DNA from: an uncultured Planctomycetales bacterium
GTDB lineage: Bacteria; Omnitrophota; Gorgyraeia; Zapsychrales; JANLHA01
Reading direction: 5' to 3'
NCBI GenBank assembly: GCA_964374105.1
Contig: CAYJXI010000002.1
Coordinates: 57,730 to 121,729, forward strand
Length of the DNA stretch: 64,000 bases
A program made the position numbers and the translations under genes. Shown piece by piece: positions 17,361-31,417 of the stretch. The stretch's first letter is position 1; each line of letters opens with the position of its first letter. The notes beneath the pieces were generated by a model, which was not told the origin of the DNA, ran no database searches, and was given only the letters and a program-made list of their open reading frames with translations.

Positions 17361-17699
17361 ATGATCTATAGACCTGAACGCAGAAGAGATAAACGGGCTT
17401 TATGTCTGGTGCCGATTGAGTCTAAGCTGGGGACCTTGTTTGAGGGGATTAAGACTGTCGATATTAGTCTAGGAGGAATGGGATTTGTTTCCAAGAAGAA
17501 ACTTCCTCTTCATCAGAAAATGGCCATTGAAATAGAATTGATCCCTCAAGAAAGACCGATCCTTGTATTAGGCAAGGTGAGGTGGTTGACTCCTTTTTCT
17601 CAAGCGCGGTTATATCGCATTGGTTTGCAATTTGAAGGCGTTTTACAATATCCTTCAAGGTTACGGTTGAATAAATATATGAAATCAAGAGAAAAATAA
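17361..17699 (+). CDS. PilZ domain protein (c-di-GMP receptor-like)
   Basis: RRRDKR...DISLGGMGF matches the PilZ RxxxR ... DxSxxG motifs. Confidence 0.6.
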   Translation: MIYRPERRRDKRALCLVPIESKLGTLFEGIKTVDISLGGMGFVSKKKLPLHQKMAIEIELIPQERPILVLGKVRWLTPFSQARLYRIGLQFEGVLQYPSRLRLNKYMKSREK

Positions 17700-17759
17700 A
17701 ATTCTCTTTAGTGCTGGTTCGGGGATTTTAAAATTATTCTTGGTCAAGAGAAAGGATAT

Positions 17760-18095
17760 TTGCCGGTGAAAAATAATCGTATTTTTGAGCGATTCCCAGC
17801 AAGATTTCCAGCGAAATTTAGGAATTCTTTTAATGATTTTGGTACCAATGTCTTTTTAAGGAATGCCTCTGCCTCCGGGGTTAAAATTACAACCCATGAG
17901 AAGTTATTTCAAAATGATAGCGTCTCCTTATTGGTTAAATTACCGGATGGCCACGATCCCTTGGTTTTGAATTGTCAGGTTATTTGGTCTAAAAATAGAG
18001 ATCCCAATCTATGGGATGTGGGATTAAAACTCTATAAAATCAACTTTATGCAGATACAAAGATTATTTAAATTGGTAGAAGACAGCAGTCTGTGA
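17760..18095 (+). CDS. PilZ domain protein, second tandem copy
   Basis: NNRIFERFP...RNASASGVKI is PilZ-like. It lies directly downstream of the first PilZ gene. Confidence 0.5.
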   Translation: MPVKNNRIFERFPARFPAKFRNSFNDFGTNVFLRNASASGVKITTHEKLFQNDSVSLLVKLPDGHDPLVLNCQVIWSKNRDPNLWDVGLKLYKINFMQIQRLFKLVEDSSL

Positions 18096-18271: not shown

Positions 18272-20689
18272 ATGAAGTACGGGCATTTCTCCAAAGACGG
18301 ACTTGAATACATCATCACTGATCCTAATACTCCTCGCCCTTGGATCAATTATCTGACTAACGAACAATATTGCTGTATTATCTCGCAATGCGCTGGTGGT
18401 TATAGTTTTTATAAAGATTGTCGAACGAATCGGATCACGCGGTGGCTTCCGGAAAATTGGCATTTTGACCGACCAGGGAAATATCTTTTTATCCGCGATA
18501 AAAATAAAGTTTGGTCTTTAACTTACCAACCTCTTCGCGTCAAGCCGAAGTTTTTTCAATGCCGTCATGGACTAGGTTACACGGTTATTGAATCTCTAAA
18601 TCAGGGAGTAAAATCCAAGGTCACTTATTTTGTCCCCCCCAAGGATGATTGTGAAGTTTGGCTTGTGGAATTGACTAATACAACCAAAAAAGAGAGGGCC
18701 CTTGAGATTTATCCTTATGTGGAATTCCTTATTGGCGATTATCAGGAGGAACTCCGTTATCGCAATATCATGAATCTTTACAACCGTGTTTGGTTTGACA
18801 AATCCCGTCAGGCTGTCTTTGCCAAAAAGACCGCCATGTGGCAAGGGATGAATATCCAGCCTTTTGACACCTTGGTTTTTTTTGCTTCTTCCTTAGTGGT
18901 GAAAGGATGTTGCACTCATAAAGATACCTTTTTGGGAAGATATAATACTGAGGAAAAACCGGAAAGTATATTTCAGGGGAAATTCAAAAATTTCCTTTTG
19001 TGTTCGGGAGAAGAGGGAATCGGATCCTTTAAACACATTGTTCGTCTTAACCCCAGCGATACAAAAGAATTTACGGTGATCCTAGGGCAAACCACGGGAA
19101 TACCGGAAATTGCCAAGATCTTAACAAAATATAGGGATGTGAAGAATGCCAAAAAGGAGCTTACAAATACAAAAGAGCTTTGGCGTAAAAGGATTTTGGA
19201 TAATATCATGATTGATACCCCGGATAAAGATTTTAATTCGTTATACAATATTTGGGTAAAGTATCAAGTTTATATGTGTAATCTTTGGTCACGTTCTCCC
19301 AGTTATTATCATGAAGGTTCCGGAGGCAGGGGTTATCGAGATTCAGCCCAAGATTTAGAAGCGATTGTCTCCATCAATCCAAAATTGACTCGTCAAAAAA
19401 TTTTAAAAATTGCCTCTTTGATCCGACGGGATGGCACCTCGGCTCCAGGCTGGTCGGATACCTCCGGCCCATATAAACACCGTCCCAATAAAGATCATCC
19501 GATTTGGCTTACCGCTACTGTCAGTGCTTATATCAAAGAGACCGGAGACAAGGACGTTTTGTTTGAGTACGCCCCTTATTTAAAAGACCATTGGCGAGGA
19601 GGCTGGGAGATGGATCCAAATTATAAAGGAGGAAGCCAAACGGATGGGGAAGGGACGCTTTTGGAGCATTTAGAAAAAAATTTACAATTTTGTTTTAATG
19701 ATGTGGGGGAAAAAGGATTTCCTCGTATTGGCCATGCCGATTGGAATGATGCCATTGATGCGGCAGGGATTCGCCATAAAGGAGAAAGTGTTTGGTTAGC
19801 CCAGGCCTTGGTTCGGTCATTGAAAATATTGGCAGAAATTTTTGATTTGATTGGGAATGAAAAAAAGAAAACGGAATACCTGCAAATGGCTAAGACCATG
19901 GATGAACGCATCAACTCCATTGCCTGGGATGGGGAATGGTATACCCGAGGTTATGATGACGATGGGCTGGCTTATGGGAGCAAACAGGATAAAGAAGGAA
20001 AGATTTTCTTAAATACTCAGGCTTGGGCCATTTTAGCGGGGGTGGCTAGGGGAGAGAGATTAAAAACTGTCATCCAATCGGTTGATCAGTATCTGAATGG
20101 TCCTCACGGTTTGGCTTTATTTTATCCCGCCTATTCTTCTTGGGTTAAACGGTTAGGCCGCATCAGTATGTTCTCGGAAGGAACAAAAGAAAACGCTGCT
20201 GTTTTCTGCCATGCCGCTACATTTATGACAGTAGCTTTGGCGATGAGTGGCTATGGCGATAAGGCTCATGAGGCTATGCGCAAAATTATGCCCAATGCCC
20301 AAAAAGATATGGAAATTTATAAAACCGAACCCTATGTCTTTGCCGAATATCTTGTAGGGCCTCAGAATCCTTATCGATATGGAGAGGGGGCCTTTACTTG
20401 GATCACCGGTTCCTCGGGGTGGCAATTTATGTTGGCCACCGAATGGATTTTAGGTGCTAGACGAGATTACCAAGGATTAAGGATCGATCCTTGCATCCCT
20501 AAGAAGTGGAAAAAATGTTTTATCCGACGTCCGTTTCGCGGGGATATTTATGATATTGAGATTACGAATCCTTTTGGTAAGGAACACGGCGTTAAGCAAG
20601 TCTTCATCGATGGGAAAGAAATCGATGGGGATCTCATTGTTCCTTTTCAAGATGGGAGGATTCATCGAGTCAAAGTCATCATGGGTTGA
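18272..20689 (+). CDS. GH94 family glycoside phosphorylase (cellobiose / cellodextrin / chitobiose phosphorylase-like)
   Basis: 805 aa. The N-terminus MKYGHFSKDGLEYIITDPNTPRPWINYLTN matches the conserved start of cellobiose phosphorylases. Confidence 0.8.
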   Translation: MKYGHFSKDGLEYIITDPNTPRPWINYLTNEQYCCIISQCAGGYSFYKDCRTNRITRWLPENWHFDRPGKYLFIRDKNKVWSLTYQPLRVKPKFFQCRHGLGYTVIESLNQGVKSKVTYFVPPKDDCEVWLVELTNTTKKERALEIYPYVEFLIGDYQEELRYRNIMNLYNRVWFDKSRQAVFAKKTAMWQGMNIQPFDTLVFFASSLVVKGCCTHKDTFLGRYNTEEKPESIFQGKFKNFLLCSGEEGIGSFKHIVRLNPSDTKEFTVILGQTTGIPEIAKILTKYRDVKNAKKELTNTKELWRKRILDNIMIDTPDKDFNSLYNIWVKYQVYMCNLWSRSPSYYHEGSGGRGYRDSAQDLEAIVSINPKLTRQKILKIASLIRRDGTSAPGWSDTSGPYKHRPNKDHPIWLTATVSAYIKETGDKDVLFEYAPYLKDHWRGGWEMDPNYKGGSQTDGEGTLLEHLEKNLQFCFNDVGEKGFPRIGHADWNDAIDAAGIRHKGESVWLAQALVRSLKILAEIFDLIGNEKKKTEYLQMAKTMDERINSIAWDGEWYTRGYDDDGLAYGSKQDKEGKIFLNTQAWAILAGVARGERLKTVIQSVDQYLNGPHGLALFYPAYSSWVKRLGRISMFSEGTKENAAVFCHAATFMTVALAMSGYGDKAHEAMRKIMPNAQKDMEIYKTEPYVFAEYLVGPQNPYRYGEGAFTWITGSSGWQFMLATEWILGARRDYQGLRIDPCIPKKWKKCFIRRPFRGDIYDIEITNPFGKEHGVKQVFIDGKEIDGDLIVPFQDGRIHRVKVIMG

Positions 20690-20729
20690 TCCCCATGTTT
20701 ATTATATCCTTTGTTGGCTTAAGTCGGTT

Positions 20730-20758
20730 TTGACAAATTTCTGTTGGCGTGTTAAAAT
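20730..20758 (+). promoter_or_regulatory. Strong sigma70-type promoter for the sugar ABC operon
   Basis: TTGACA (20730-20735), a 17-nt spacer, then TAAAAT (20753-20758). Confidence 0.55.
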
Positions 20759-20835
20759 GCACCCTTTGAATTAGCCACATTTCTTTTTGCAATTGGAGGC
20801 AAATGGTTGGCGAACATTGATCATTCCACCCATTT

Positions 20836-20869
20836 CCAAACACCCGGTGTTTGGAGACAGGTGTTTGGG
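20836..20869 (+). promoter_or_regulatory. Perfect 19-bp palindrome plus a half-site repeat between the promoter and the ABC binding-protein gene; a candidate operator
   Basis: ccaaacacccggtgtttgg is a perfect palindrome. It is followed by agacaggtgtttggg, which repeats the right half-site. Confidence 0.4.
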
Positions 20870-20896
20870 ATGACCAAAATGTAGCCTTTAAATTCA

Positions 20897-22204
20897 ATGA
20901 ACATAAATAAAAAAATTTTTCTTACCATCCAATTCTTCCTGTTATCCCTTCTTCTTTTCTTTCCATTAGGATGTTTCAACAGAGTAAAAAATCCGAATAC
21001 CCTTGTCGTATGGCATTGGATGACGGATCGTCATGAGGTCTTTGAAACATTAGCAGAAAAATACGAAAAAGAAACTGGTAATAAAATTATTTTTGAACTC
21101 TATGCGCCTTCCGATGTTTACTCACAGAAAGTGGTTGCTGCTGCTCAGGCAAAAATTTTACCCGATATCTTTGGGATCTTGGATAAAAAGTCAATTGTCG
21201 CCTCTTTCATTGAAAGCGGGTTTGTAGCGGATTTGTCCGAAGAGTTCAAAAAAGATGATGCGGCTTGGGAGAAAACTTTCTTCCCTAAGGCTTTGGCGGT
21301 CAATCGCTTTGAGGAAGGCAACTCCTATCATATCAAACCCGGCATTTATGGAGTTCCCATTGATGTAACAAATATTCAAATGCTTTATAACAAAAAGTTA
21401 TTGAAGAAAGCAGGTATTGACCAACCTCCAAAAACATTTGCGGAATTACTTGAGGCGAGCGAGGCTCTCAAACGCGTTGGGATAGCAGGAATTGTTTCAG
21501 GCTGGGGGGAACTTTGGATGGCAGAGTGTTTCGCCTCAAATTATGCCTTTAACATCATGGGAGAAGAAAAAGTGATGGCCACATACCGAGGGGAAATCCC
21601 CTACACTGATCCGGATTGGATCAAAGTTTTTGATATATTCGCCCAGCTGAGAGACAAAGGAGCTTTGGCAGAAGGGATTGTGACAAAAGCAAATAAATAT
21701 GCGGAACAAGATTTTGCCTTAGAGCGAGCTGCGTTTGCCTTTAATGGTTCCTGGGGTGTGAATGAATATCATAAAAGGAATCCGGAATTAGAGTATGGGG
21801 CCATGCTCCCACCTGCGATAAATGACAAATTACCGATGAAAATATGGGGGGGAGCTGGGTCATCATTTAAAGTTAATAATCATTCAAAGAATAAGGACAA
21901 GGCTATTGCTTTTTTAAAATGGTTAACGGCCAAAGAACAACAGGTCTTTCTAGCTCAGCAGACAAAAAATTTGCCCTCGAATAGAGATGCTTTAGCTTCT
22001 ATCCCTAAGATACTTTCAGAATTTGCCATGGTCATGGATCATACAACACATCCTACGATCTGGCCCATTAATGAAGATGCCCTTGTGACCGAGGCTTTTG
22101 ATAAAGGGCTGCAAGCCATTATGATAGGGGAAATGACCCCTCAAGAAGTTGCCCAAGAGGTGCAAGGAGTTAAGAAACGTCAGTTGGGAAAGACCAAAAG
22201 GTGA
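20897..22204 (+). CDS. ABC transporter extracellular solute-binding protein (carbohydrate, family 1)
   Basis: 435 aa with an N-terminal signal/lipobox-like sequence (LLLFFPLGCF) and a sugar-SBP fold. Two MalF/MalG-type permeases follow. Confidence 0.8.
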   Translation: MNINKKIFLTIQFFLLSLLLFFPLGCFNRVKNPNTLVVWHWMTDRHEVFETLAEKYEKETGNKIIFELYAPSDVYSQKVVAAAQAKILPDIFGILDKKSIVASFIESGFVADLSEEFKKDDAAWEKTFFPKALAVNRFEEGNSYHIKPGIYGVPIDVTNIQMLYNKKLLKKAGIDQPPKTFAELLEASEALKRVGIAGIVSGWGELWMAECFASNYAFNIMGEEKVMATYRGEIPYTDPDWIKVFDIFAQLRDKGALAEGIVTKANKYAEQDFALERAAFAFNGSWGVNEYHKRNPELEYGAMLPPAINDKLPMKIWGGAGSSFKVNNHSKNKDKAIAFLKWLTAKEQQVFLAQQTKNLPSNRDALASIPKILSEFAMVMDHTTHPTIWPINEDALVTEAFDKGLQAIMIGEMTPQEVAQEVQGVKKRQLGKTKR

Positions 22205-22218
22205 TAAAAACGGTTAGT

Positions 22219-22251
22219 CAGTAGGGGCGACCCGGCGGGTCGCCCCTACTT
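22219..22251 (+). terminator. Intra-operon hairpin (partial terminator) between the SBP gene and the permease genes
   Basis: agtaggggcgacccggcgggtcgcccctact forms a perfect 13-bp stem with a short T tract. Confidence 0.5.
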
Positions 22252-22262
22252 TAGGGATTATC

Positions 22263-23189
22263 ATGGAAGGTTATAAAACTCAAAGGTCTTTGTCGGCAAA
22301 GTTAAAAGATAAAACCGAAAATTTTTTTTTCATTGCCCCCGCTGTCGTTATCTTCTCAATTTTTTATGTTTATCCTTTCATCAATATCTTCCATTTATCT
22401 CTTTTTGAATGGAATGGAATCAGTCCAAGCCGAGAATTTGTCGGTTTAGATAATTTTAAAGAATTGATGTATGATAAGGTGTGGTGGTCATCCATGGGGC
22501 ATGCGGCCTATATCACCCTTATCGCGCTTACGTTTCAAAATGCCCTGGCCTTTGCCTTGGCACTTGCTTGTGACCGAGAAATCCGGCTTAAAAAATTTTA
22601 TCGAGTTGTTTTTTTTATTCCACCTGTTTTATCTGAGATCGTTATCGGGTTAATTTGGCAGTGGATCCTATATTCGGGAATTCACGATGGAGAATATATA
22701 GGATTATTAAATTATTTTCTCGATAAGGCAGGATTGCATCATTTGGCGCATAATTGGTTATCGGACCCTAAGACGGCTTTGACGTGTATTGCGGTTGTTC
22801 ACAGTTGGAAGGGATTCGGTTGGGGATTTATCATTTTATTGGCGGGATTGCAGACAATTGATCGACAATTGTATGAAGCCGCTCGCGTGGATGGAGCGGG
22901 AAGTTGGAATATATTCTTGAATGTGACTATCCCCTTGATGCTGCCGGTGATTGTCGTTGTTGTTATTTTAACAATTTTAGGATCGATGCAAGTGTTTGTT
23001 CTTATTCTCTCCATGGTAGGACAAGGTTTGGTTTACCATACTGAGGTGCCGGTGACAAGGATTCTGGCTTCCATGATGGGAACAAATCGTTTTGGTTATG
23101 CGTGTGCCCAGGGGGTAGTTTTTGGATTGATTTTGGTCGTTGTCTCTTTCACGCTCAAGCTTTTATCGAATAAAATGAAACAGGCCTAA
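22263..23189 (+). CDS. Sugar ABC transporter permease (MalF/UgpA-like)
   Basis: The EAA-loop region is EAARVDGAGSWNIFLNVTIPL. Six TM helices are predicted. Confidence 0.85.
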   Translation: MEGYKTQRSLSAKLKDKTENFFFIAPAVVIFSIFYVYPFINIFHLSLFEWNGISPSREFVGLDNFKELMYDKVWWSSMGHAAYITLIALTFQNALAFALALACDREIRLKKFYRVVFFIPPVLSEIVIGLIWQWILYSGIHDGEYIGLLNYFLDKAGLHHLAHNWLSDPKTALTCIAVVHSWKGFGWGFIILLAGLQTIDRQLYEAARVDGAGSWNIFLNVTIPLMLPVIVVVVILTILGSMQVFVLILSMVGQGLVYHTEVPVTRILASMMGTNRFGYACAQGVVFGLILVVVSFTLKLLSNKMKQA

Positions 23190-23280
23190 AAGCCTTCAGC
23201 CATCAGTTTTCAGTTATCAGAAAGAAGATAAAGCTTATGATTAACTGAGAGCTGATGACTGAAAGCTGAAAACTCAAATT

Positions 23281-24123
23281 ATGATCGAACGCTATAAAAT
23301 TATTCGTATCTTCAAATCGGTTGTCACCCATTTGTTATTGGGGAGTGTCACCTTGACGTGTTTATTGCCATTTTTTTGGATGGTAAGGTGTGCGTTGATG
23401 AGTGAAGATACGATTTTTACGGATAAATCTTTGATTCCTTCCCAATTGCATTTTGAAAATTTTTACTTGGCTTGGACCAAAGGAAACTTTGGAATTTATT
23501 TTTTGAATAGTGTGATTTATACGGCTACGGTCGTCATGGGTATTATTTTGATTTCCTCTTTAGCCGCCTTTGCTTTTTCCCGATTGAAATTCCCTGGGAG
23601 AAATTTATTCTATTTTGTGTTTGTGGCGGCGATGATGATCCCCTTGCCAGGAAGTTTTGTCCCTCTGTATGTGCTTATGAATAAATTAGGATTGGTGAAT
23701 AATCCGGTTGGATACATCATTTGTATGATCAATGTGGGATTGTCTTTGAGCATATTGCTTCTTAAAACATTTTTTGACAAAATGCCCTTGGATCTAGAAG
23801 ACGCCGCCAGAATTGACGGATGTTCCAAATTAGGGATCTGGTGGCATGTGGCCTTGCCCCTCGCTCGGCCGGCCATTGCGGTCATAGCTATCTTTAATTC
23901 CCTCAATGTTTGGAATGAGTACATCCTTGCTATGCTTTTATTGAATGATAAAAATTTAATGCCGCTCCAAAGGGGGTTGATGGTCTTTCAGGGACAACAT
24001 AGTGTTGATTATCATCTGTTGTTGGCGGGATTGACGATTACAGCCATTCCTATAATTATCATATATTTATTTATGCAAAAACATATTATTAAAGGGCTTT
24101 CCTCGGGTGCTATTGTAGGATAG
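23281..24123 (+). CDS. Sugar ABC transporter permease (MalG/UgpE-like)
   Basis: The EAA-loop region is EDAARIDGCSKLGIWWHVALPLARPA. Confidence 0.85.
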   Translation: MIERYKIIRIFKSVVTHLLLGSVTLTCLLPFFWMVRCALMSEDTIFTDKSLIPSQLHFENFYLAWTKGNFGIYFLNSVIYTATVVMGIILISSLAAFAFSRLKFPGRNLFYFVFVAAMMIPLPGSFVPLYVLMNKLGLVNNPVGYIICMINVGLSLSILLLKTFFDKMPLDLEDAARIDGCSKLGIWWHVALPLARPAIAVIAIFNSLNVWNEYILAMLLLNDKNLMPLQRGLMVFQGQHSVDYHLLLAGLTITAIPIIIIYLFMQKHIIKGLSSGAIVG

Positions 24124-24162
24124 CTTTTGTGTGATCCTGCCTGATGGCAGTCAGGTGTTGGC

Positions 24163-26586
24163 ATGAAGGATAGAGTGGTGAAATTCAAAATTCGATTCTT
24201 ATTAATTGGTGCTTGCCTTCCCGGGTTCTTACTGCAATCTGCCCTCCTTTCCTTTTCTCAAACAGAAAAGGATGTTCAATCAGCAGAAACTCCCGAACCT
24301 TCTGTTGAAGTCAACGAAACCACAATTCCTCCAGTGGAGAGTTCATCCAAACCGCCAGACGTGCCTTCCAAAGAGCTTGTCGGTCGAGCGTGGGAGGCCT
24401 CCAGCCAAGGCGACCTTAAAAAACTTGACTTTTTAGTGAATGAGTGTTTAACCCAATATGAAAGCCAAGCCAGAAGACTGCATGCTCAATTGAATGATTT
24501 CCCGGCGCGCGATAAGATTGAAGAATACCGGGTCATGAATGATGTGGCGACAATCCTCTTTGTTCAAGGGGAGGCCCTGATGAATTTTGGGAAAACAGAA
24601 GAGGCCATGGTTGTTTTTAAGAAAATTATTGATGAGTACAAATGGTCGCAGGCCTGGGATCCTCGGGGATGGTATTGGTCCATTGCCGAAAAAAGTCAAG
24701 CAAGTATCAATGTGATAACAGGCAATATCCCCGATGAAGAACCCGATAAAATTGAAGAACGCATAAAGACATTACCCAATTTGTTCACCAAGGGAAAAGA
24801 AAGTATTATTAATTATTTAAGATATGGTAACTTTTTTGAGGTTGGAACGCAGAATTATCGTTATGAGATCAAGGATCCCCAAGGCCTTTCTGCGGCTGTG
24901 GGAGAGGGGATTTATCCGAATACAGGATCGGTATTAAAAAATCCGGGTTACAAAAAGGCCCATGAAGAAGGGCGTCTGGGAGGGAGTCATTGGGATTTTG
25001 TGCACAGTGATGATCTGGAAGCCGCCTTTTACAAATGGGCGACAGCTCCGGAGCCTTGGGGGGTAAAGCTTTTTTATATTGGGATGATTTTTGAGAAGGC
25101 CAAAATGTATTTAGAGGCCATCAAGGCTTATCAGTCAATTGTTGTGCATTTTCCCCAATCGGTGGGATGGACCTATTGGCAGACTCCCTGGTATCCTGCC
25201 CAGGCAGCCATTGCTAAGATTAAACACATCATCCGCAGTCATCCGGAATTAAACCTCAAGGCCAAATGGATGAAAGTGGAGATAAAAAATGGGTTTGATA
25301 ATAATATCAGAAATGATATTGTCGTGACTTATCCTGGGGTGATCAAAAAGAAATCCGTTTGGGATCATCTGCAAGATAAGCTACCCGCGGCAAGATCCCA
25401 AGTGCAATTAGGCAAAATCAAAAAAAAGGTTGGTGAGGGAAAAGTCCAACTTCTTCAGTACGACAATGGTCACTGGCAATTGTTAGTCGAAGGAAAACCG
25501 TTCCTTATAAGAGGGATGACCTATCATCCCACTAAGGTTGGCCAAAGCCCGGATAAGGGAACTTTAGTCAGTTGGATGGATGTGGATATAAATAAAAATG
25601 GCCTTGCCGATGGGCCCTATGATTCTTGGGTGGATAAAAATAAAAACCATCAACAAGACCCGGATGAATCAGTCGTAGGAGACTTTCGATTGATGAAAGA
25701 ATTAGGGGTAAATACCCTTCGGGAATATCATCAGCCTTTCAAATTGAATAAAGATTTCTTAAGAAAGATGCATAAAGAATATGGATTTTATGTGATGTTA
25801 GGAGATTATTTAGGAAAATACACTTTGGGATCAGGGGCATCGTGGTTTGAAGGGACTGATTATGAAAATCCCGAACACCAAAAAAATATGATGGAAGCGG
25901 TTAAGAACATGGTTATGGAATTCAAAGACGAACCATATATTTTGCTTTGGATTTTAGGGAATGAAAATAATTATGGAGTAGCCTGTAATGCGGATCAAAA
26001 GCCCGAAGCCTATTTTAAGTTTGTCAATGAGGTTGCCAAAATGATGAAATCCATTGATCCCCATCATCCCATTGCCCTGTGTAACGGAGATACGTTATAT
26101 TTGGATGTGTTTGCGAAATATGCCACGGAAATTGATGTCTATGCGGCTAACGTCTATCGAGGAGATTATGGGTTTGGTTCCTTTTGGGAACAGGTTTCGG
26201 ATGCCTCTGGGAGGCCGGCCTTTATCACGGAATATGGAAGCCCGGCCTATGCCAGACATTTAGCGCTCGAGGAAGCAGAAGAAGCCCAGGCTAATTATCA
26301 TCGGGGAAATTGGCTAGATATTGAGTCCAATGCGGTGGGACAAAAAGAAGGAGTTGGAAATGCCTTGGGAGGGGTACTGTTTGAATGGGTCGATGAATGG
26401 TGGAAAAATTATGAGCCGTTTTATCATGATAAGAAATCCGATGCGATTGGTCCTTTCCCAGGAGGATATTATTATGAAGAATGGTTCGGGATCACCAGTC
26501 AAGGCAAAGGTAATCACAGCCCTTTTTTAAGACAGTTAAGAAAGAGTTATTTTACTTATAGAGAAATGTGGAATAAAGATAGGTAG
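24163..26586 (+). CDS. Secreted GH2-like TIM-barrel glycoside hydrolase with a novel N-terminal ~110-aa domain
   Basis: It has a signal peptide. The N-terminal domain is shared with ORF 26971-27831. The central region carries LacZ-like motifs (VNTLREYHQP like NAVRCSHYP; ILLWILGNENNYG like IIWSLGNESG). Confidence 0.5.
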   Translation: MKDRVVKFKIRFLLIGACLPGFLLQSALLSFSQTEKDVQSAETPEPSVEVNETTIPPVESSSKPPDVPSKELVGRAWEASSQGDLKKLDFLVNECLTQYESQARRLHAQLNDFPARDKIEEYRVMNDVATILFVQGEALMNFGKTEEAMVVFKKIIDEYKWSQAWDPRGWYWSIAEKSQASINVITGNIPDEEPDKIEERIKTLPNLFTKGKESIINYLRYGNFFEVGTQNYRYEIKDPQGLSAAVGEGIYPNTGSVLKNPGYKKAHEEGRLGGSHWDFVHSDDLEAAFYKWATAPEPWGVKLFYIGMIFEKAKMYLEAIKAYQSIVVHFPQSVGWTYWQTPWYPAQAAIAKIKHIIRSHPELNLKAKWMKVEIKNGFDNNIRNDIVVTYPGVIKKKSVWDHLQDKLPAARSQVQLGKIKKKVGEGKVQLLQYDNGHWQLLVEGKPFLIRGMTYHPTKVGQSPDKGTLVSWMDVDINKNGLADGPYDSWVDKNKNHQQDPDESVVGDFRLMKELGVNTLREYHQPFKLNKDFLRKMHKEYGFYVMLGDYLGKYTLGSGASWFEGTDYENPEHQKNMMEAVKNMVMEFKDEPYILLWILGNENNYGVACNADQKPEAYFKFVNEVAKMMKSIDPHHPIALCNGDTLYLDVFAKYATEIDVYAANVYRGDYGFGSFWEQVSDASGRPAFITEYGSPAYARHLALEEAEEAQANYHRGNWLDIESNAVGQKEGVGNALGGVLFEWVDEWWKNYEPFYHDKKSDAIGPFPGGYYYEEWFGITSQGKGNHSPFLRQLRKSYFTYREMWNKDR

Positions 26587-26970
26587 CTGATGGGCAGGCA
26601 TAATTTCAATAACTCAAATCGTATCAGAAATAAAACTCTCTAGAAACCAAAGGGTTAGAAAGTTTAAGAGTTAGAATTATGATTTAAAAATCATCCTAGA
26701 TCCGGTGGCCGGGGCCAGGGTAAATTTAATTTTGTCGAAATGGAAAAAAAATGTTAAACTTTTATAGCGAGCAAGTCAGGAAGTATATCGAAATTAACCA
26801 GAGGGGAGGTGTCGTGAAGTCATTAAAAAGGGAGAAATCTATAAATTCAATTGTATTTTCAAAGAAACTTCCGCAAAACATTCAAGGGTTAAGATAATTT
26901 AGAGATAAGCGTTTCATTTCACTAGAGAAAAGAAGTAAAATCTTCTTATAAAAATAGGAGGTAAGTTGCA

Positions 26971-27831
26971 ATGGCAAAGAAAGTTGTAGGCAAAGTTTTG
27001 ATTTTAATCTTGGCATCTGTTCTTTTTTGGCCTAGGCAGGCTTCAGCATACAATTATGGTGATTATCGTTCCGTCACCTTAGCGACTAAGGCATGGGAAG
27101 CATTAGCCAAGAAAGATCTAGAAGCGGTCTTAGCCTTTAGCAATAAATGCATTGAATTATATGCTGATCAGGCAAAGAAGATGCAAGAAAGCCTTAGCGA
27201 ATATCCTTCTGGTAGCAATGAAGAAATTTTTGCTTATTGGGCTTTGAATGATGTAGCTACCAGCTTGTTTATTCAAGGGGAGGCCTACCGTAATGCTAAT
27301 ATGCAGGAAGAGGCTAAAACAGTCTATCAAAGGATTATTGAGGAATTCAGTTTTGGCCAGTGTTGGGATAATGGGGGTTGGTTCTGGAAACCCGCTGAGG
27401 CGGCTAAGGAAAAAGTCGCCATGATTGAATCTGGCTCCAATTTGGATTTCGGTGATTATAAATCTACTACCCTTACCGTCAAGGCTTGGGAGGCCCTCGC
27501 TAGCGAAGACCTAGATGCGGTCTTGGCTTATGCGAATAAATGCTTGGAATTGTATGAAAATAAAGCTAAAGAAATGCAGAATTCTTTGACAGAATATCCT
27601 TGGGAGTCTAAAGAAAAAATCTTTAGCTATTGGGCTCTCAATGATGTTGGGACATCTCTATTTATTAAAGGCGAGGCCTTAAAACACGCTGGAAAAGTCG
27701 AAGAAGCTAAAAAAGCCTATCAGAGATTGATTGGTGAATACTATTATGCCCAGTGCTGGGATCCGCAAGGCTGGTTTTGGAAACCTTCTGAAGCTGCACA
27801 GCAAAAATTGGATGAATTATCAGAGACTTAA
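26971..27831 (+). CDS. Secreted protein made of two tandem copies of the novel ~110-aa YWALNDV...QCWD..GWFWKP domain
   Basis: A signal peptide is present. The two internal repeats are about 55% identical to each other and clearly related to the N-terminal domain of the upstream hydrolase. Confidence 0.5.
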   Translation: MAKKVVGKVLILILASVLFWPRQASAYNYGDYRSVTLATKAWEALAKKDLEAVLAFSNKCIELYADQAKKMQESLSEYPSGSNEEIFAYWALNDVATSLFIQGEAYRNANMQEEAKTVYQRIIEEFSFGQCWDNGGWFWKPAEAAKEKVAMIESGSNLDFGDYKSTTLTVKAWEALASEDLDAVLAYANKCLELYENKAKEMQNSLTEYPWESKEKIFSYWALNDVGTSLFIKGEALKHAGKVEEAKKAYQRLIGEYYYAQCWDPQGWFWKPSEAAQQKLDELSET

Positions 27832-27964
27832 TTCCTAATCAATTGATTAAAGGTAGAGGATAGAGGGAGAAATTGGTCATTTGAGTTGTATATGAAATTT
27901 TCGGATGACACCAATCATCCTCTATCCTATACCGACAACCTTGTTTAGAAAGTGAGTTTTAAAA

Positions 27965-28606
27965 ATGAGATTCATTATCTATTTTTTATTCCTTACTGTT
28001 GTAATGGGCTGTCAGAAAACAATTGCCGATAACCCTTCACCATCCGATCCCAATCAAAAGATTCAAGGGGTGGCTGAGGATCCTGCTTTTAAATCTTTTA
28101 TGCTTTATAAAGATAAAGGTTCACGTGATAATCATTTTATTCCTTCGGGATTTATGCCAAACGGAAAGTGTCTTACCCTTGAGGATGCCTGGAAGGAAGG
28201 GTGTTTTGATGGCAGTACTTGTATCGAGATTATTTATGATAGAGAGTGTTCACTCAAGGATCAAAAGTGGGCAGGAATCTATTGGTTAAATCCAGCAAAT
28301 AATTGGGGTAACCAAAAAGGAGGTTTTAATCTTTCGGGTGCCAAGAAATTGACATTCTGGGCCAAAGGGAAAAAAGGGGGGGAAAGAATCGAAGAATTTA
28401 AGATCGGAGGAATCACGGGTGATTATCCTGATACCGATATGGCCATGATTGGTCCTGTTGTCTTAACCAATGAATGGCAGCAATATACCATTGACTTACG
28501 GGGTAAAGATTTATCTTATATTAGTGGAGGGTTTTCCTGGGCTACCAATGTGGATGTCAATTCGGAAAGCTGTACTTTTTATTTGGATAATATTCAATAC
28601 GAATAA
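27965..28606 (+). CDS. Lipoprotein, possibly carbohydrate-binding (beta-sandwich)
   Basis: It has a lipobox (VVMGC). The mature part is rich in aromatic residues and Gly, and it sits in a glycan-utilisation context. Confidence 0.35.
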   Translation: MRFIIYFLFLTVVMGCQKTIADNPSPSDPNQKIQGVAEDPAFKSFMLYKDKGSRDNHFIPSGFMPNGKCLTLEDAWKEGCFDGSTCIEIIYDRECSLKDQKWAGIYWLNPANNWGNQKGGFNLSGAKKLTFWAKGKKGGERIEEFKIGGITGDYPDTDMAMIGPVVLTNEWQQYTIDLRGKDLSYISGGFSWATNVDVNSESCTFYLDNIQYE

Positions 28607-28711
28607 TAGTTTTCAAAAAAGTAATTCATTATAAATACTCTTCTGTAACTCTCCTGTAAATCTCGGGACACGCGTTCACTTAAGAACGGTGTCCTTTTTT
28701 ATTTTACCCCG

Positions 28712-28830
28712 ATGCCAGAAAGCCATTCATCCATACCCGTAACGGACATGGCTTTCTGGGTCGGGGTTCCGACCCCCGAAGGGGCGTCGGAACCCCGAAA
28801 GAAGAGATGTCACCCCGCCATGGCGGGGTG
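28712..28830. repeat. REP/MITE-like GC-rich palindromic element
   Basis: The flanking inverted repeat is ccagaaagccat / atggctttctgg. Inner palindromes ggggttccgacccc, gtcggaaccccg and accccgccatggcggggt are shared with the folC insert. Confidence 0.5.
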
Positions 28831-29038
28831 GAGCTTCACAAGTTGCATGGGGGGGATTGATGCATAAAATCAAAATTCTTCAAATCATATTTTTCATCGG
28901 TGGCTTAAGATTGATAAAGAGAACGCCTGAAACACGAGAATATATATGAATTTATTTACTTTTTTCTTGTATTGCCTTTGATACTTTGTTATATTCATTA
29001 CGTTATATTTTATTTTTAAAATAAATAAAAGGGGGGAT

Positions 29039-30340
29039 ATGTCCAAAGTCGCAAGACAGATTGTTTTGATTTTAGCAATTCTTGTCGTAGGTGTTTTTCT
29101 TTTTGCGGGTTATACATTAATAGAAAAACAAAGGTTAATCAAAGAGAAGGATTCATTAGAAAAACAAATTGAAGAATTCCAAAATCGAGAGAAAAAATAC
29201 GTTGTTGATAATAAAGCCTTGCAAGACAAACTGAACGATGTGGAAAAGGCCAAGGCCAAGATGGAGGAGCGCTTGAAGACAGTGGATGCCGATATGGAGG
29301 CCTTAAATACGAAAATCAAACAGTTAACCCAAGAGCGTGATGAATGGCAAAAACGAGTTGATGAAATTAAAAAAGAAAGAGACGATCTGTTAGTCAAAGT
29401 TCAAGAGAAACCCGAACCACAGATCGTTTACAAATATATCGAGAAAGAGGCCACTGAGGAAGAAAAAGAAGGGCAAGTTCAACCCCCGGAGGGTCAAGGA
29501 AAGGAAGACGGCGTTTATAAAATCGAATCTGTTACTGAGGAAGATGAATCCTATTGGGCAGATGTCCTTAAGGGAAAGGCCGCTTTAGCATTGGAAGTCG
29601 AAAAGTTGACAGAAGAATTATCCAAGAGTTCGGTTGAGGTCGTTGAATTAAAGAAACAGAACTCTGATTTACAATTAGAATTGAGCAGTGTTAAGAATCA
29701 GAAAGAGGGTATTGAAAGAGATATCAAATATGGAAAGGATTTATCGGATACTCTCTCTTTAGAGTTGGCCCGTTCCAAGAATGACAACAAGTTTTTAAAT
29801 AATCGAATTGGCAAATTGAATGAAGAGAATAATTACCTTAGAGAGCAAATGAAACAATTGACTTCTACCAAGATCGCCTTGGAAAAAAGCATTGTGCGTT
29901 TACAAGATGAGAAAAAGGAAGTTGAGAAGAAACTCCTAGAAACAGAAAATGTGATCCAAAGTCGGATTGATGAGATTTGGCAGATCAAAGAGAGTTTAGA
30001 TAAAAGCTTTCAAACGACAAAACCGGGGATGACAAATGAAATTGAACTCCCACCCATTATTGTGAGTGCGCAAGAATCGGGAGGGGAATCAACTGATGAA
30101 TCAAGGAAAGAGACAGGTCCGGGTTTTCAGGGTAATGTTGTTAGCGTTAATGAAGAGAACAATTTTGTCATTCTCGATCTGGGAGAGGCAGAGGGCATAA
30201 AAATCGGGGATGCGTTAAGTGTCTATCGTGGTACGGAATTCGTGGCGGCCTTAGAAGTCATTCAAGTCCGCAAGGACATTGCCGCAGCGGATATTAAAAA
30301 TAAAGTTGCCAAAATTTTGATTGGAGATGAAGTTCGATAA
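29039..30340 (+). CDS. Membrane-anchored long coiled-coil protein with a small C-terminal beta domain
   Basis: It has an N-terminal TM helix and about 300 aa of heptad-rich sequence rich in E, K, L and Q. An acidic linker is followed by a C-terminal ~70-aa G.VV...ILDLG...G.KIGD domain, which may be SAF/FlgA-like. Confidence 0.45.
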   Translation: MSKVARQIVLILAILVVGVFLFAGYTLIEKQRLIKEKDSLEKQIEEFQNREKKYVVDNKALQDKLNDVEKAKAKMEERLKTVDADMEALNTKIKQLTQERDEWQKRVDEIKKERDDLLVKVQEKPEPQIVYKYIEKEATEEEKEGQVQPPEGQGKEDGVYKIESVTEEDESYWADVLKGKAALALEVEKLTEELSKSSVEVVELKKQNSDLQLELSSVKNQKEGIERDIKYGKDLSDTLSLELARSKNDNKFLNNRIGKLNEENNYLREQMKQLTSTKIALEKSIVRLQDEKKEVEKKLLETENVIQSRIDEIWQIKESLDKSFQTTKPGMTNEIELPPIIVSAQESGGESTDESRKETGPGFQGNVVSVNEENNFVILDLGEAEGIKIGDALSVYRGTEFVAALEVIQVRKDIAAADIKNKVAKILIGDEVR

Positions 30341-30379
30341 GTTCTTTCTCTCTCAAAGGTAGAGTTCTTAAATTTTATC

Positions 30380-31417
30380 TTGCCCATTTCCTATCGAGGT
30401 GAATTCACATTGATCAAAAATAAGAAAGTCAGAATTGAAGATGTTGCCCAGAGGGCTAAAGTCTCTATTACCACTGTCTCGCGTGTGATCAATAATATCC
30501 CGACAGTCAGTAAAAAAAATCAGGCCCGCGTGGAGGAGGCTATTGCTTTTTTTAAATATAAGCCCAATGTCAGTGCTCAGCGGTTGGCACGCGGGCTTAA
30601 TAATGCGGTGGGGCTTGTCATGCCAGGATATCCGGGGATTTTTCACTCCTTTTATGCCATCGAGTTGATTCGCGGGGTAGGACATGCTTGTGAAACTTTG
30701 AAGTTAGACCTTGTTTTTCATATCACCAATGGGGCCAATCCTATCAATTCCAACAGCGTGGGAGGTGTCATCTTTGCAGATATCATCGATAATAGGCAAC
30801 AAGTCATTTCTGCCATAGAACATGGGGTTCCCTGCATGGTCATTAACAATATCGTTGATGATTTAGAGGTGAATTATATCGGAATTGATAATTTTACTGG
30901 TGGTAATATGGCGACGGATTATCTGGTCAGCCTGGGTCACCACCGGATTGCTACGGTCACCGGGAATTTGCAAACTCAGGCTGGGAAACACCGATTTGAA
31001 GGTTATAAGCAGGCTTTCAATAAGTATAAAATTGATATCAACAATGATTATATCATTGAAGGCGATTATTCCCGTCGAACTGCCCGACTGGGGGCAGAAA
31101 AATTATTATCCCTCCCGAAACCTCCTACCGCAATTTTTGCCGCTAGCGACGATATGGCTTTGGAAATCATCACGGTGATTATGGAAAAAGGGTTCAAAGT
31201 CCCTGAAGATATCTCGGTGATTGGTTTTGATGATAATCCCTCCGCCATTTATGGCCCCATTGCCTTAACGACCGTCAGACAACCCTTGTTTAAAATGGGT
31301 GAGGATGCCGTTAAGTATTTAAACGCTATTGTGACCGAAAAAAAGAGATCACCAGTTCAGATGGTCTTAACGCCTCAACTCGTGGTCAGAGATTCGTGTA
31401 CGACTCCTAAGAAATAA
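30380..31417 (+). CDS. LacI family transcriptional regulator
   Basis: The HTH reads VRIEDVAQRAKVSITTVSRVINN, followed by a periplasmic-binding-protein-like domain. The true start is probably the TTG near 30410. Confidence 0.85.
   Translation: MPISYRGEFTLIKNKKVRIEDVAQRAKVSITTVSRVINNIPTVSKKNQARVEEAIAFFKYKPNVSAQRLARGLNNAVGLVMPGYPGIFHSFYAIELIRGVGHACETLKLDLVFHITNGANPINSNSVGGVIFADIIDNRQQVISAIEHGVPCMVINNIVDDLEVNYIGIDNFTGGNMATDYLVSLGHHRIATVTGNLQTQAGKHRFEGYKQAFNKYKIDINNDYIIEGDYSRRTARLGAEKLLSLPKPPTAIFAASDDMALEIITVIMEKGFKVPEDISVIGFDDNPSAIYGPIALTTVRQPLFKMGEDAVKYLNAIVTEKKRSPVQMVLTPQLVVRDSCTTPKK

Follow-up and report, generated by a model that had tools for sequence, protein, structure and literature searches.

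A cassette of seven genes, all on the forward strand, occupies positions 18272-28606 of the window, by which is meant the whole 64-kb stretch of DNA that was analysed; an ORF check confirmed each of the seven reading frames (Table 1). Strong homology signals fall on long ORFs, and the genes are therefore not due to chance. The same sugar-harvesting cassette is conserved across the uncultured phylum Omnitrophota. The first-pass annotation placed its limits at 18272-28606; the genes are present, but these limits are too narrow, since synteny adds two PilZ genes (17361-18095) on one side and a coiled-coil/LacI pair (29039-31417) on the other.

Table 1. Genes and signals of the cassette and its flanks in the window
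Feature	Position	Strand	Evidence
PilZ protein 1, 112 aa	17361..17699	+	Pfam PilZ 4.5e-12
PilZ protein 2, 111 aa	17760..18095	+	Pfam PilZ 8.3e-10
GH94 disaccharide phosphorylase, cytoplasmic, 805 aa	18272..20689	+	Pfam PF17167 (catalytic domain) 1.1e-104, PF06165 (supersandwich) 1.9e-66
Sigma-70-like promoter match, best in region	20730..20758	+	TTGACA-17-TAAAAT, with TG; 5′ of SBP gene
Sugar-binding protein (SBP), CUT1-type ABC importer, 435 aa	20897..22204	+	Pfam SBP_bac_8 8e-35, SBP_bac_1 1.4e-33
ABC permease 1, 308 aa, 6 predicted TM segments	22263..23189	+	Pfam BPD_transp_1 1e-18; hydropathy scan
ABC permease 2, 280 aa, 6 predicted TM segments	23281..24123	+	Pfam BPD_transp_1 1.4e-17; hydropathy scan
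Exported glycoside hydrolase, 807 aa	24163..26586	+	Partial Glyco_hydro_2_C TIM-barrel match, TPR_6
Exported protein, two TPR-like modules, 286 aa	26971..27831	+	Pfam TPR_6 1.4e-11
Lipoprotein, beta-sandwich carbohydrate-binding-module fold, 213 aa	27965..28606	+	Pfam: no match
Intrinsic-terminator-like hairpin with U tract	28665..28705	+	Closes SBP-to-lipoprotein unit
Membrane-anchored coiled-coil protein, 433 aa, small C-terminal beta domain	29039..30340	+	N-terminal TM segment
LacI-family transcription regulator	30380..31417	+	Pfam LacI HTH 2.1e-15, Peripla_BP_3 6.5e-32

Signals and regulators

The promoter match in front of the SBP gene is weak evidence, being a consensus match only in a background of 48 sigma-70-like matches against 36 +/- 6.7 in shuffles. 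At the other end of the unit the segment 28660-28850 folds with an MFE of -97.2 kcal/mol (z = -8.25), a value that none of 200 shuffles attained, and the terminator-like hairpin is followed by three further GC-rich hairpins, to about 28830. The LacI gene, which had been placed 2 kb downstream, lies 1.8 kb 3′ of the cassette and is found in 18 related loci; a search for a LacI operator identified none. The coiled-coil protein occurs in 22 related loci, directly 5′ of LacI wherever both are present, and its Pfam hits consist of coiled-coil noise and FlgT_C at 2.2e-5, below the curated cut-off. PilZ protein 1 carries both an RxxxR motif (RRDKR) and a DxSxxG motif (DISLGG) and is predicted to be a c-di-GMP receptor; the motifs of PilZ protein 2 are RIFER and NASASG. 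Of 80 related loci, 23 have PilZ genes no more than three genes away from the cassette, and in 14 they lie immediately 5′ of it.

The ABC importer

The importer comprises one binding protein and two permeases. An ABC ATPase signature (LSGGQ plus Walker A) is absent from the 64-kb window and from all 83 related loci, in agreement with the earlier description of an SBP and two permeases 3′ of GH94 with no ATPase gene. The lipobox-like N-terminus of the SBP (..LLLFFPLGC) suggests that it is probably a lipoprotein. It has no close solved relative, its best PDB E-value being 1.4e-22, to a maltose-binding protein, and it is weakly similar to the chitin-oligosaccharide-binding proteins NgcE and NagB1. 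This similarity, together with the strong match of chitobiose phosphorylases to the GH94 protein (5.9e-118), would fit use of chito-oligosaccharides in which the GH94 serves as chitobiose phosphorylase. Such a role is highly improbable: neither the window nor the related cassettes hold a chitinase family (GH18/19/20) or a GlcNAc catabolic gene, and the linked enzymes are all glucan-active.

The exported hydrolase

The 807-aa enzyme had been described as secreted and GH2-like. Its cleavable-type N-terminal signal bears out export, but the enzyme is closer to GH158/GH157 than to GH2. The signal peptide is followed by a disordered linker (aa 17-61), a TPR-like module (aa ~69-186), a second helical region with a beta-sandwich (aa ~207-442) and a clan GH-A TIM barrel (aa ~443-807). 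In Pfam it matches TPR_6 and, at 5.4e-16, positions 36-218 of the 302 in the Glyco_hydro_2_C profile. Assignment to GH2 was rejected, as the protein is without the GH2 sugar-binding and Ig-like domains and matches only part of a generic TIM-barrel model. The test that the first-pass annotation had set for its reading, support for both the GH94 and the GH2 assignment, gave a split result, with GH94 supported and GH2 not.

The best PDB sequence matches of the hydrolase are two GH158 endo-beta-1,3-glucanases (E 1.6e-14 and 1.8e-13 with a family profile); all GH2 matches are weaker, by 6-7 orders of magnitude. Sequence and fold matches alike are best to the endo-beta-1,3-glucanase families GH158 and GH157; the alignments used for AF2 contained little diversity (60-70% identity), a point against the beta-1,3 reading. 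Both catalytic glutamates, the acid/base E601 (codon 25963-25965) and the nucleophile E690 (codon 26230-26232), are invariant and align with the catalytic pair of GH158(Pro), the processive beta-1,3-glucanase (PDB 9oro; Nat Commun 2026, PMC13195107) that is the best sequence match. Laminaribiose is the main product of GH158(Pro), which depends on a beta-1,3 linkage at subsites -2/-1 (PMC13195107); a disaccharide product would suit a disaccharide phosphorylase as the next enzyme of the pathway. GH158(Pro) is also able to cut a beta-1,4 bond where a beta-1,3 bond precedes it, which favours the cellodextrin or mixed-linkage reading taken up below. The resemblance is partial: the two enzymes are only 27% identical over 266 structurally aligned residues, and the similarity to GH158 is significant in sequence only over barrel beta-strands 4 to 7/8, which counts against a beta-1,3 specificity. 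From the aromatic platform of GH158(Pro) (Trp77, Phe278, Tyr291, Trp236), only the equivalent of Phe278 could be checked in the hydrolase, where it is F740.

The TPR-like protein and the lipoprotein

The hydrolase and the 286-aa protein share a helical module of roughly 130 aa (36% identity, E 5e-28 and 5e-26); each half of the smaller protein matches aa 56-186 of the hydrolase, so that it consists of two copies, and TPR_6 is its only Pfam match. The domain had been called novel; it is indeed common to the two proteins, but is a divergent TPR-like module that occurs fused or free. Other loci encode it just 5′ of a shorter hydrolase (about 650 aa) that is without the module. The 286-aa protein probably works with the hydrolase, as its partner or adaptor. 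Its cleavable-type signal and the lipobox-like N-terminus of the 213-aa protein (..VVMGC) fit the earlier view of both as secreted or lipoprotein accessories.

The 213-aa lipoprotein is a CBM11/CBM30-like beta-sandwich. GH17 is a beta-1,3-glucan-active family, and the lipoprotein domain is fused to GH17 in 5 of the 18 multidomain relatives sampled, its sole other glycosidase fusion among these being to a hydrolase-like TIM barrel. The lipoprotein is probably a glucan-binding protein. Its closest CBM folds, however, bind beta-1,4 and mixed-linkage glucans, which counts against the beta-1,3 reading. CBM11 is its best fold match, and a protein with the domain order CBM11-CBM11-hydrolase-CBM9 occurs in some related loci; both observations lend support to the use of cellodextrins or mixed-linkage beta-glucan.

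The GH94 phosphorylase

The earlier GH94 assignment is borne out by both Pfam domains (Table 1), and an N-terminus without a signal peptide fits the cytoplasmic location that had been proposed. The catalytic Asp493 in the WND loop (491-493), the RD motif (356-357) and the phosphate His 647 are shared with cellobiose phosphorylase (CBP; C. thermocellum 3qde, Cellvibrio gilvus 2cqs), as are length and domain order. Its best solved matches are cellobiose phosphorylases, led by 3qde (2.6e-141; identity only 36%), and its homologues are named as such by automatic annotation. These points, too, favour cellodextrin or mixed-linkage beta-glucan use, in which the exported enzyme would free cellobiose-containing oligosaccharides for a true cellobiose phosphorylase; we regard this as unlikely.

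Judged by its sequence, the enzyme combines a cellobiose-phosphorylase architecture with a different acceptor site: Glu649, Tyr653 and Asn667 of CBP are replaced by Arg630, Phe634 and Ala648. The first two of these positions are likewise Arg and Phe in laminaribiose phosphorylase 6ggy, a point in favour of the beta-1,3 reading. The GRISMFSEGTKEN motif is invariant throughout the clade of the window enzyme, and PsLBP has GRAFGF at the equivalent place; no PsLBP structure contains an acceptor, and what its Arg/Phe pair does is deduced from the structure of CBP. At full length, laminaribiose phosphorylase (6e-42) is a more distant match to the window protein than are cellobiose phosphorylases (E 1e-141). 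Both points count against the beta-1,3 reading.

Related loci

Most of the 83 loci (Omnitrophota, Elusimicrobiota) share a core made up of the SBP, both permeases, the hydrolase and the lipoprotein. In 15 the same cassette includes a GH161 gene, whose product matches the solved GH161 9qqk at E 6.5e-220, and in two (L046, L063) this gene adjoins a GH94 of the window type. Enzymes of family GH161 phosphorolyse beta-1,3-glucan and leave laminaribiose. Two further loci (L014, L016) have the synteny of the window (PilZ, PilZ, GH94 slot, SBP, two permeases, hydrolase, TPR protein, lipoprotein), with the GH94 slot filled by an orthologue of Paenibacillus laminaribiose phosphorylase (LBP; E 1.2e-258). 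The substrate, which had been left open between cellodextrin, laminaridextrin and chitooligosaccharide, is narrowed by the GH158, GH161, LBP and GH17 links to a glucan with beta-1,3 linkage, in preference to cellodextrin or chitin. Counting against this, genes of the GH161 or LBP type are confined to 17 of about 80 loci; the paralogous hydrolases of other loci (45-70% identity) could have a different specificity.

The cassette is already known in outline. West-Roberts et al. (bioRxiv 10.1101/2023.11.21.568195) noted small PilZ, binding-protein, permease and glycosyl hydrolase genes 3′ of Omnitrophota giant genes, apparently the same cassette, described at the Pfam level and read as degradation of prey cell walls; a 2026 preprint mentions ‘GH2 catalytic-domain’ proteins beside giant genes. 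In two of the loci found here (L084, L085) the cassette directly follows giant genes, of 23,032 and 21,600 codons. Harvesting of envelope glycans from bacterial or archaeal prey is nonetheless improbable. In the window the cassette adjoins no giant gene, its neighbours being MnmE and two PMT_2 glycosyltransferase genes, and none was seen within the 10-kb flanks of the cassettes in Elusimicrobiota and Endomicrobia. No peptidoglycan- or pseudomurein-related component was found, and all family links found point to beta-1,3-glucan, which to our knowledge is not a usual wall polymer of bacteria or archaea.

In a further alternative, c-di-GMP would control the remodelling or recycling of a beta-glucan that the cell itself makes, either periplasmic glucan or exopolysaccharide, with the hydrolase as a periplasmic glucanase or transglycosylase. 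This is equally doubtful, since the cassette encodes no glucan synthase and the importer, phosphorylases and LacI or ROK repressors of the related loci form a standard catabolic pattern; regulators of these two families are typical of catabolic loci. In addition, related loci contain proteins resembling outer-membrane proteins, and the CBM-like lipoprotein in multiple copies, as do systems for capture of external glycans.

Discussion

Among the closest known systems are beta-1,3-gluco-oligosaccharide gene clusters of Paenibacillus and Acholeplasma (Kuhaudomlarp et al. 2019, PMC6484121). These likewise combine an extracellular beta-1,3-glucanase and a CUT1-type ABC importer that brings no nucleotide-binding subunit of its own with phosphorylases that complete the breakdown in the cytoplasm; their GH161-GH94 tandems, already described beside such importers, reappear here in related loci. 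The present system differs in belonging to a diderm host of the PVC group and in having, in place of GH16, a glucanase that is GH158-like and fused to TPR; the window's GH94 clade is separate from characterised laminaribiose phosphorylases, and a CBM-like lipoprotein, TPR partner, PilZ proteins and coiled-coil protein are added. In Bacteroides, a locus dedicated to beta(1,3)-glucan (Dejean et al. 2020, PMC7157763) also pairs a GH158-type retaining endo-laminarinase, BuGH158 (PDB 6pal), with glycan-binding lipoproteins. Here, however, an ABC importer replaces the SusC/SusD pair, breakdown ends in phosphorolysis rather than with a GH3 beta-glucosidase, and TPR and beta-sandwich domains at the N-terminus of the hydrolase stand in place of the C-terminal Ig-like domain of GH158.

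Gene content, family relationships, catalytic residues, synteny and domain fusions, all directly observed, make it probable that the cassette serves this Candidatus Omnitrophota bacterium in the use of a beta-1,3-glucan, of laminarin or curdlan type and possibly of mixed linkage. It counts against this that no characterised enzyme or protein falls in the hydrolase clade, the GH94 clade or the lipoprotein family. The overall design first proposed, an exported glycanase with accessories, ATPase-less ABC uptake, a cytoplasmic GH94 and LacI, is upheld. In the beta-1,3-glucan reading, the retaining clan GH-A glucanase would cut the glucan to laminaribiose or short oligosaccharides, assisted by the TPR-like partner and the lipoprotein. 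Substrate and products, the siting of the exported proteins in an envelope of two membranes, and the regulatory roles of LacI and PilZ are inferences. The lipoprotein SBP and permeases would bring in the products, with an ATPase encoded elsewhere in the genome energising the transporter. The LacI-family protein presumably represses the genes, and the two PilZ proteins presumably place the system under c-di-GMP control. In the cytoplasm, GH94 would convert the disaccharide to glucose and glucose-1-phosphate, by which one ATP would be saved.

Gene content and topology of the cassette

The seven ORFs that the first-pass annotation had placed at 18272-28606 were all found there, on the plus strand, and the topology proposed for them was upheld; the GH94 protein has no signal peptide, lipobox-like N-termini are seen in the solute-binding protein and in the 213-aa protein, and the 807-aa and 286-aa proteins carry cleavable-type signal peptides. 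The design proposed for the locus, extracellular trimming followed by ABC uptake and phosphorolysis, also stands, but the assignment of the hydrolase to GH2 does not, the boundaries had been drawn too narrowly, and the substrate, which had been left open, can now be narrowed. The evidence described below makes it probable that the locus is a beta-1,3-glucan utilisation cassette, in which a laminarin-type beta-1,3-glucan would enter the cell as a di- or oligosaccharide before being phosphorolysed.

Features of the window and occurrence of the cassette genes in the related loci
Feature	Position	Strand	Evidence or detail	Loci (of 83)
CRISPR-Cas remnant	317-5611			
Cas7	317-1183			
Bro-N gene	1251-2078		between cas genes	
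RhuM-family gene	2230-3336		between cas genes	
Cas4	3333-4001			
Cas1	3998-5029			
Minimal CRISPR array	5518 and 5584		two 28-nt repeats (GTCGCGCCCCGTGCGGGCGCGTGGATTG)	
PMT_2-type (GT39/GT83-like) membrane glycosyltransferases	13107-16586	-	two tandem genes, divergent from the PilZ/GH94 block	
PilZ protein 1	17361-17699	+	Pfam, 4.5e-12; upstream of GH94	
PilZ protein 2	17760-18095	+	Pfam, 8.3e-10; upstream of GH94	
GH94 phosphorylase (805 aa)	18272-20689	+	PF17167, 1.1e-104 (aa 306-728); PF06165, 1.9e-66 (aa 21-272)	13
Best promoter-like site	20730-20758			
Inverted repeat	20836-20854		CCAAACACC-C-GGTGTTTGG	
Family-1 solute-binding protein	20897-22204	+	Pfam	43
Permease 1	22263-23189	+	BPD_transp_1, Pfam	
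Inter-permease spacer	23190-23280		91 bp	
Permease 2	23281-24123	+	BPD_transp_1, Pfam	48
Exported hydrolase (807 aa)		+	GH158-like barrel	82
TPR protein (286 aa)		+		26
Lipoprotein (213 aa)		+		67
Intrinsic-terminator-like hairpin and U tract	28665-28705		3' of the lipoprotein gene	
Folded region	28660-28850		MFE -97.2 kcal/mol, z = -8.25	
Perfect 20-nt palindrome	28811-28830		CACCCCGCCATGGCGGGGTG	
Coiled-coil protein				22
LacI	30380-31417		PF00356, 2.1e-15; PF13377, 6.5e-32	18

A CUT1-type carbohydrate importer comprises a cluster-B solute-binding protein, two BPD_transp_1 permeases and an MsmK/MalK-type ATPase, and the binding protein and both permeases of a putative one are present in the window by Pfam. 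An ABC ATPase gene, already noted as missing beside the importer, is absent both from the 64-kb window and from the 83 related loci; shared-ATPase importers elsewhere likewise have no ATPase gene of their own. The best solved relatives of the binding protein are maltose, chitin-oligosaccharide, xylo-oligosaccharide and beta-1,2-glucan binders, all with weak E-values, and because they are both mixed and weak the binding protein is uninformative on substrate. Chitin and beta-1,2-glucan were considered as substrates and rejected, use of chitin oligosaccharides being extremely improbable. In the 91-bp spacer between the permease genes a long imperfect inverted repeat appears, by eye, to be present (..CAGCCATCAGTTTTCAG.. 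/ ..CTGATGACTGAAAGCTGAAAACT).

Lnt and BamD are encoded in the window and the host must therefore have two membranes. Neither a SusC-like TonB-dependent transporter nor a SusD-like lipoprotein, as in polysaccharide utilisation loci of the Bacteroidota type, was found in the window, and Rfam and tRNA scans of it detected no RNA genes. Far upstream of the cassette lies a CRISPR-Cas remnant.

The exported hydrolase

The 807-aa protein had been called GH2-like. This could not be sustained, as the sugar-binding and Ig-like domains of GH2 are absent (neither PF02837 nor PF00703, the N-terminal GH2 domains, was found by Pfam) and the barrel model PF02836 is matched only in part (profile positions 36-218 of 302, 59 bits). 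NCBIfam beta-galactosidase/beta-glucuronidase models scored around 30 bits against cut-offs of 544-1284. The jelly-roll, Ig-like and barrel order of GH2 is absent and TPR-like helices are found at the N-terminus; membership of GH2 was accordingly rejected.

The top matches among solved structures are instead two GH158 endo-beta-1,3-glucanases, the processive enzyme GH158(Pro) (PDB 9oro) and BuGH158 (PDB 6pal). Searched as a single sequence, the hydrolase matched these with E-values of 3.5e-12 and 2.3e-9 respectively, the best GH2 structure giving 6.4e-5, and with a profile of 54 homologues the corresponding values were 1.6e-14, 1.8e-13 and 7.5e-8. In the AlphaFold model (pLDDT 81, pTM 0.80) the signal peptide leads into a disordered linker, after which come a module of TPR-like helices (aa 69-186), a further helical region with a beta-sandwich (aa ~207-442) and a (beta/alpha)8 barrel. 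All of the accessory domains are N-terminal, with TPR-like helices in aa 69-359 and the beta-sandwich in aa 365-442, and the model stops with the barrel. The hydrolase is closest to GH158/GH157, yet of a different architecture, the C-terminal Ig-like domain of GH158 being absent.

As in GH158, a family of clan GH-A, the barrel bears an acid/base glutamate after strand 4, within an NE motif, and a nucleophile glutamate after strand 7. Because these residues, E601 (GNENN) and E690 (ITEYG), do not vary among the 54 homologues and pair in the alignment with Glu143 and Glu229 of GH158(Pro), the protein is predicted from its sequence to be a retaining hydrolase of clan GH-A that is competent in catalysis. 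The protein is 60-71% identical to its best 120 database matches, which are labelled Omnitrophota wherever the source gives a name, and its homologues are labelled Candidatus Omnitrophota nearly without exception. An exported enzyme of this type might also serve in remodelling the cell's own glucan, though for a cassette that joins it to an importer and a phosphorylase this is very unlikely.

The GH94 phosphorylase

The GH94 assignment was confirmed over the full length of the protein, with the Pfam scores of both the catalytic (PF17167) and the supersandwich (PF06165) domain far over the curated cut-offs and an alignment to the cellobiose phosphorylase of C. thermocellum (CtCBP, PDB 3qde) that runs from residue 1 to 805. 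The hallmarks of the family are a WND loop that supplies the catalytic Asp, an RD sugar-phosphate motif and a conserved phosphate His (PMC6771811); here these are W491-N492-D493, R356-D357 and H647, kept in all clade members examined. The best 120 database homologues are 66-80% identical, each source that names an organism being from Omnitrophota, and the loci of three further homologues, chosen for their context, all show the order PilZ genes (two to four), GH94, binding protein, two permeases, hydrolase.

The length and domain order of the protein are those of the cellobiose-phosphorylase type, as would be expected if the cassette served for the use of cellodextrins or of a mixed-linkage glucan. 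Over 776 aligned columns the protein is 36% identical to CtCBP, below the level of about 40% by which isofunctional GH94 clusters are defined (PMC9052796), and Glu649, Tyr653 and Asn667 of the C. gilvus enzyme are replaced by Arg630, Phe634 and Ala648. Position 649 is one at which mutation alters acceptor specificity in the enzyme of C. uda, a close relative of the C. gilvus enzyme. With R630 and F634 at acceptor (+1) positions and identity this low, the protein was not placed in the cellobiose phosphorylase subgroup. Cellodextrin or mixed-linkage glucan use is judged unlikely. A fragment query of the PDB gave cellobiose phosphorylases in all five of the alignments listed, and the residue comparison at the acceptor positions accordingly covers the cellobiose and laminaribiose enzymes.

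The motif GRISMFSEGTKEN in the acceptor-site region is invariant in the clade of the window GH94, and the Paenibacillus laminaribiose phosphorylase (PsLBP, PDB 6ggy) has GRAFGF at this position, so that both enzymes share the Arg and the Phe. Membership of the PsLBP subgroup was also rejected, the match to 6ggy reaching only 6.3e-42 in two stretches; PsLBP is ~910 aa long with a beta-hairpin gate, whereas the window GH94 is shorter, at 805 aa, and not orthologous. In two loci with exact synteny to the window (L014 and L016), however, the GH94 slot is occupied by a 905-912-aa orthologue of PsLBP (E 1.2e-258). Since the Arg and Phe are shared and a true PsLBP orthologue occurs in the same slot, the window GH94 may work like a laminaribiose phosphorylase though it lies outside the PsLBP clade. 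It is read as a disaccharide phosphorylase, most probably with laminaribiose as its substrate, an assignment drawn from context and two residues and not from orthology.

The TPR protein and the lipoprotein

An apparently novel domain had been proposed to be common to the hydrolase and its partner. The sharing is real, as the 286-aa protein consists of two tandem copies of the N-terminal module of the hydrolase (36% identity; E 5e-28 and 5e-26), but the fold is not entirely new, being TPR-like (Pfam TPR_6, with weak similarity to YbgF). A third, weaker echo of the module is found at aa 300-356 of the hydrolase. In one group of related loci the TPR protein gene lies just 5' of a shorter hydrolase (~650 aa) without the module. 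That the module occurs either fused or separate points to a physical partnership of the two proteins.

The 213-aa lipoprotein, a candidate carbohydrate-binding protein of the CBM11/CBM30-like kind, which have a beta-jelly-roll fold, matches none of the Pfam families, and not one of its 1497 homologues has a name. When 1.84 billion representatives were searched with a profile, 2653 proteins matched, many of them multidomain or built of repeats, with as many as 8 copies. Among 18 multidomain relatives sampled, the domain is fused to GH17 in five and to a hydrolase-like barrel in one, and no other glycosidase family was found. GH17 enzymes are active on beta-1,3-glucan. No sequence link between the lipoprotein and the CBM11 domain of one related locus (L043) was detected by hhalign.

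Related loci

The comparison set comprised 80 loci from one-genome-per-species contigs and six from assemblies, with ORFs clustered. The conserved order is binding protein, permease 1, permease 2, hydrolase, an optional TPR protein and one to four lipoprotein copies. Often found 3' of this are a 415-460-aa barrel-only paralogue, unannotated outer-membrane-like proteins of 666 or 929 aa, a ROK regulator or the coiled-coil and LacI pair, an MFS_2 transporter (18 of 83 loci) and phosphorylases. The hosts are Omnitrophota, then Elusimicrobiota and Endomicrobia, in both of which the hydrolase is shorter, and a few MAGs labelled as other phyla.

A 1074-aa protein in 15 of the 83 loci is a GH161 (E 6.5e-220 to the solved GH161, PDB 9qqk), and in two of them, L046 and L063, it adjoins a GH94 of the window's clade. 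To our knowledge the only activity known for GH161 enzymes is phosphorolysis of beta-1,3-glucan, which they do not carry beyond laminaribiose. Tandems of GH161 and GH94 adjoining ATPase-less ABC importers have already been described (PMC6484121). The GH161 proteins and the PsLBP orthologues of L014 and L016 speak directly to the substrate; this phosphorylase evidence for beta-1,3-glucan comes from a minority of the related loci.

Several variants of the cassette were observed. In L011 (approximately 7967-10000) an MFS_2 (GPH-family) transporter stands between GH94 and the hydrolase in place of the binding protein and two permeases; L016 and L002 were noted alongside it. An unannotated protein of 313 aa (cluster c28, e.g. 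L003:7108-8049) forms a pair with MFS_2 in several loci. Directly 5' of the binding protein gene in L002, in the place of GH94, is a 1147-aa protein (172-3615) with a CBM4_9 match and a C-terminal Hint/PT-HINT (pretoxin) domain. The 929-aa protein lies within the cassette in 13 loci (L017:4569-7358) and the 666-aa protein in 14 (L083:11799-13799); the 929-aa type has an N-terminal TPR, looks rich in beta-strands by eye and has Phe as its last residue. Neither type matches Pfam or occurs in the window, and both may be outer-membrane glucan channels.

Extent and regulation

Both PilZ proteins upstream of GH94 have intact RxxxR and [D/N]xSxxG motifs and are predicted to be c-di-GMP receptors. With a purpose-built HMM, 23 of 80 non-redundant loci were found to have a PilZ gene no more than three genes from the cassette, directly upstream in 14, a count that is probably too low because many of the fetched loci end early on the upstream side. 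This conserved link hints that a second messenger controls the uptake of glycan, for which we are aware of no established precedent. In L037 (3578-5689) and eight other loci, which also contain GH161, the gene 3' of the lipoprotein encodes a ~700-aa protein that begins with a PilZ domain, continues through a TM segment and a coiled coil, and ends in a domain whose matches are weak and of the (alpha/alpha)6 GH76/GH88-like type. By analogy with the coiled-coil protein of the window, it may be a c-di-GMP-controlled membrane partner.

The 433-bp spacer 3' of the lipoprotein gene contains four strong hairpins, of which the first is terminator-like and therefore the block from binding protein to lipoprotein probably ends there. 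The others are GC-rich, one being the palindrome, and could be REP-like elements; the hairpins of 28660-28850 have no Rfam match. Apart from this terminator, a promoter and terminator scan gave counts not clearly above shuffled expectation.

The LacI regulator reported downstream of the cassette is present, with an N-terminal HTH and a periplasmic-binding-protein-like effector domain. It forms a separate conserved pair with the coiled-coil gene, 40 bp away, whose sole match is a FlgT_C/TsaP-like C-terminal domain, below threshold and rejected as an identification. A palindrome scan of all intergenic regions gave no conserved candidate for a LacI operator, and none of the shared 6-mer inverted repeats counted in 14 syntenic loci was conserved. 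The inverted repeat at 20836-20854 was rejected as an operator, being not conserved 5' of binding protein genes in related loci; it sits between the best promoter-like site and the start codon of the binding protein, and its half-site GGTGTTTGG has one further copy downstream.

Association with giant genes

A 2023 preprint on giant genes of Omnitrophota described pilZ, SBP-dependent carbohydrate transport and glycosyl hydrolase genes downstream of them, read as serving prey cell-wall degradation, and a 2026 preprint placed "GH2 catalytic-domain" proteins beside giant genes. In L084 (1-8724) and L085 (1-6926), from two related Omnitrophota genomes, the cassette of PilZ, GH94, binding protein, permeases and hydrolase is immediately downstream of giant genes, whose products have 23,032 and 21,600 residues respectively. 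Four PilZ genes are present in L085, with a GH116 gene after the cassette. The existence of the cassette is therefore not new, as these loci show that the gene set of the 2023 preprint is the same; its family-level dissection and beta-1,3-glucan assignment appear to be, and a literature search found no paper pairing Omnitrophota with cellobiose phosphorylase.

That the cassette harvests the envelope of prey would fit the many genomes in which it stands directly behind giant genes tied to predation. The window contains no giant gene, the upstream neighbours being MnmE and the two PMT_2 glycosyltransferase genes (one of these conserved in L009 only), and such harvesting is hardly to be expected as the role of the cassette.

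Discussion

Utilisation of beta-1,3-glucan is thus the reading that we favour. We know of no characterised member of the hydrolase, GH94 or lipoprotein clades. It is doubtful, but worth stating as a whole, that Omnitrophota have in the cassette their conserved nutritional module, common with Elusimicrobiota, and that it is a beta-1,3-glucan harvester gated by c-di-GMP and PilZ. In that event the TPR-fused GH158-like hydrolase would be the first member of a GH family or subfamily of its own, the lipoprotein would carry a new CBM family, the GH94 clade would have reached laminaribiose specificity on a cellobiose-phosphorylase scaffold, and in many lineages the cassette would be functionally coupled to the giant protein and secretion apparatus just upstream. 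The 'predatory' machinery would then feed on host or prey glucan, and not on peptidoglycan.

Of interest to enzymologists are three uncharacterised families or clades for which the cassette allows clear predictions: a GH158-like glucanase fused to TPRs, a domain of CBM-like type also found on GH17 enzymes, and a clade of GH94 whose acceptor site is not of the cellobiose type. Omnitrophota are abundant, uncultured and very small bacteria, whose lifestyle as free-living fermenters, parasites or predators is disputed, and the cassette is among their most conserved accessory loci. The assignment of a laminarin-type substrate can be tested; it would change the reading of the carbon source of Omnitrophota, and beta-1,3-glucan would suggest itself as an enrichment substrate for their cultivation.
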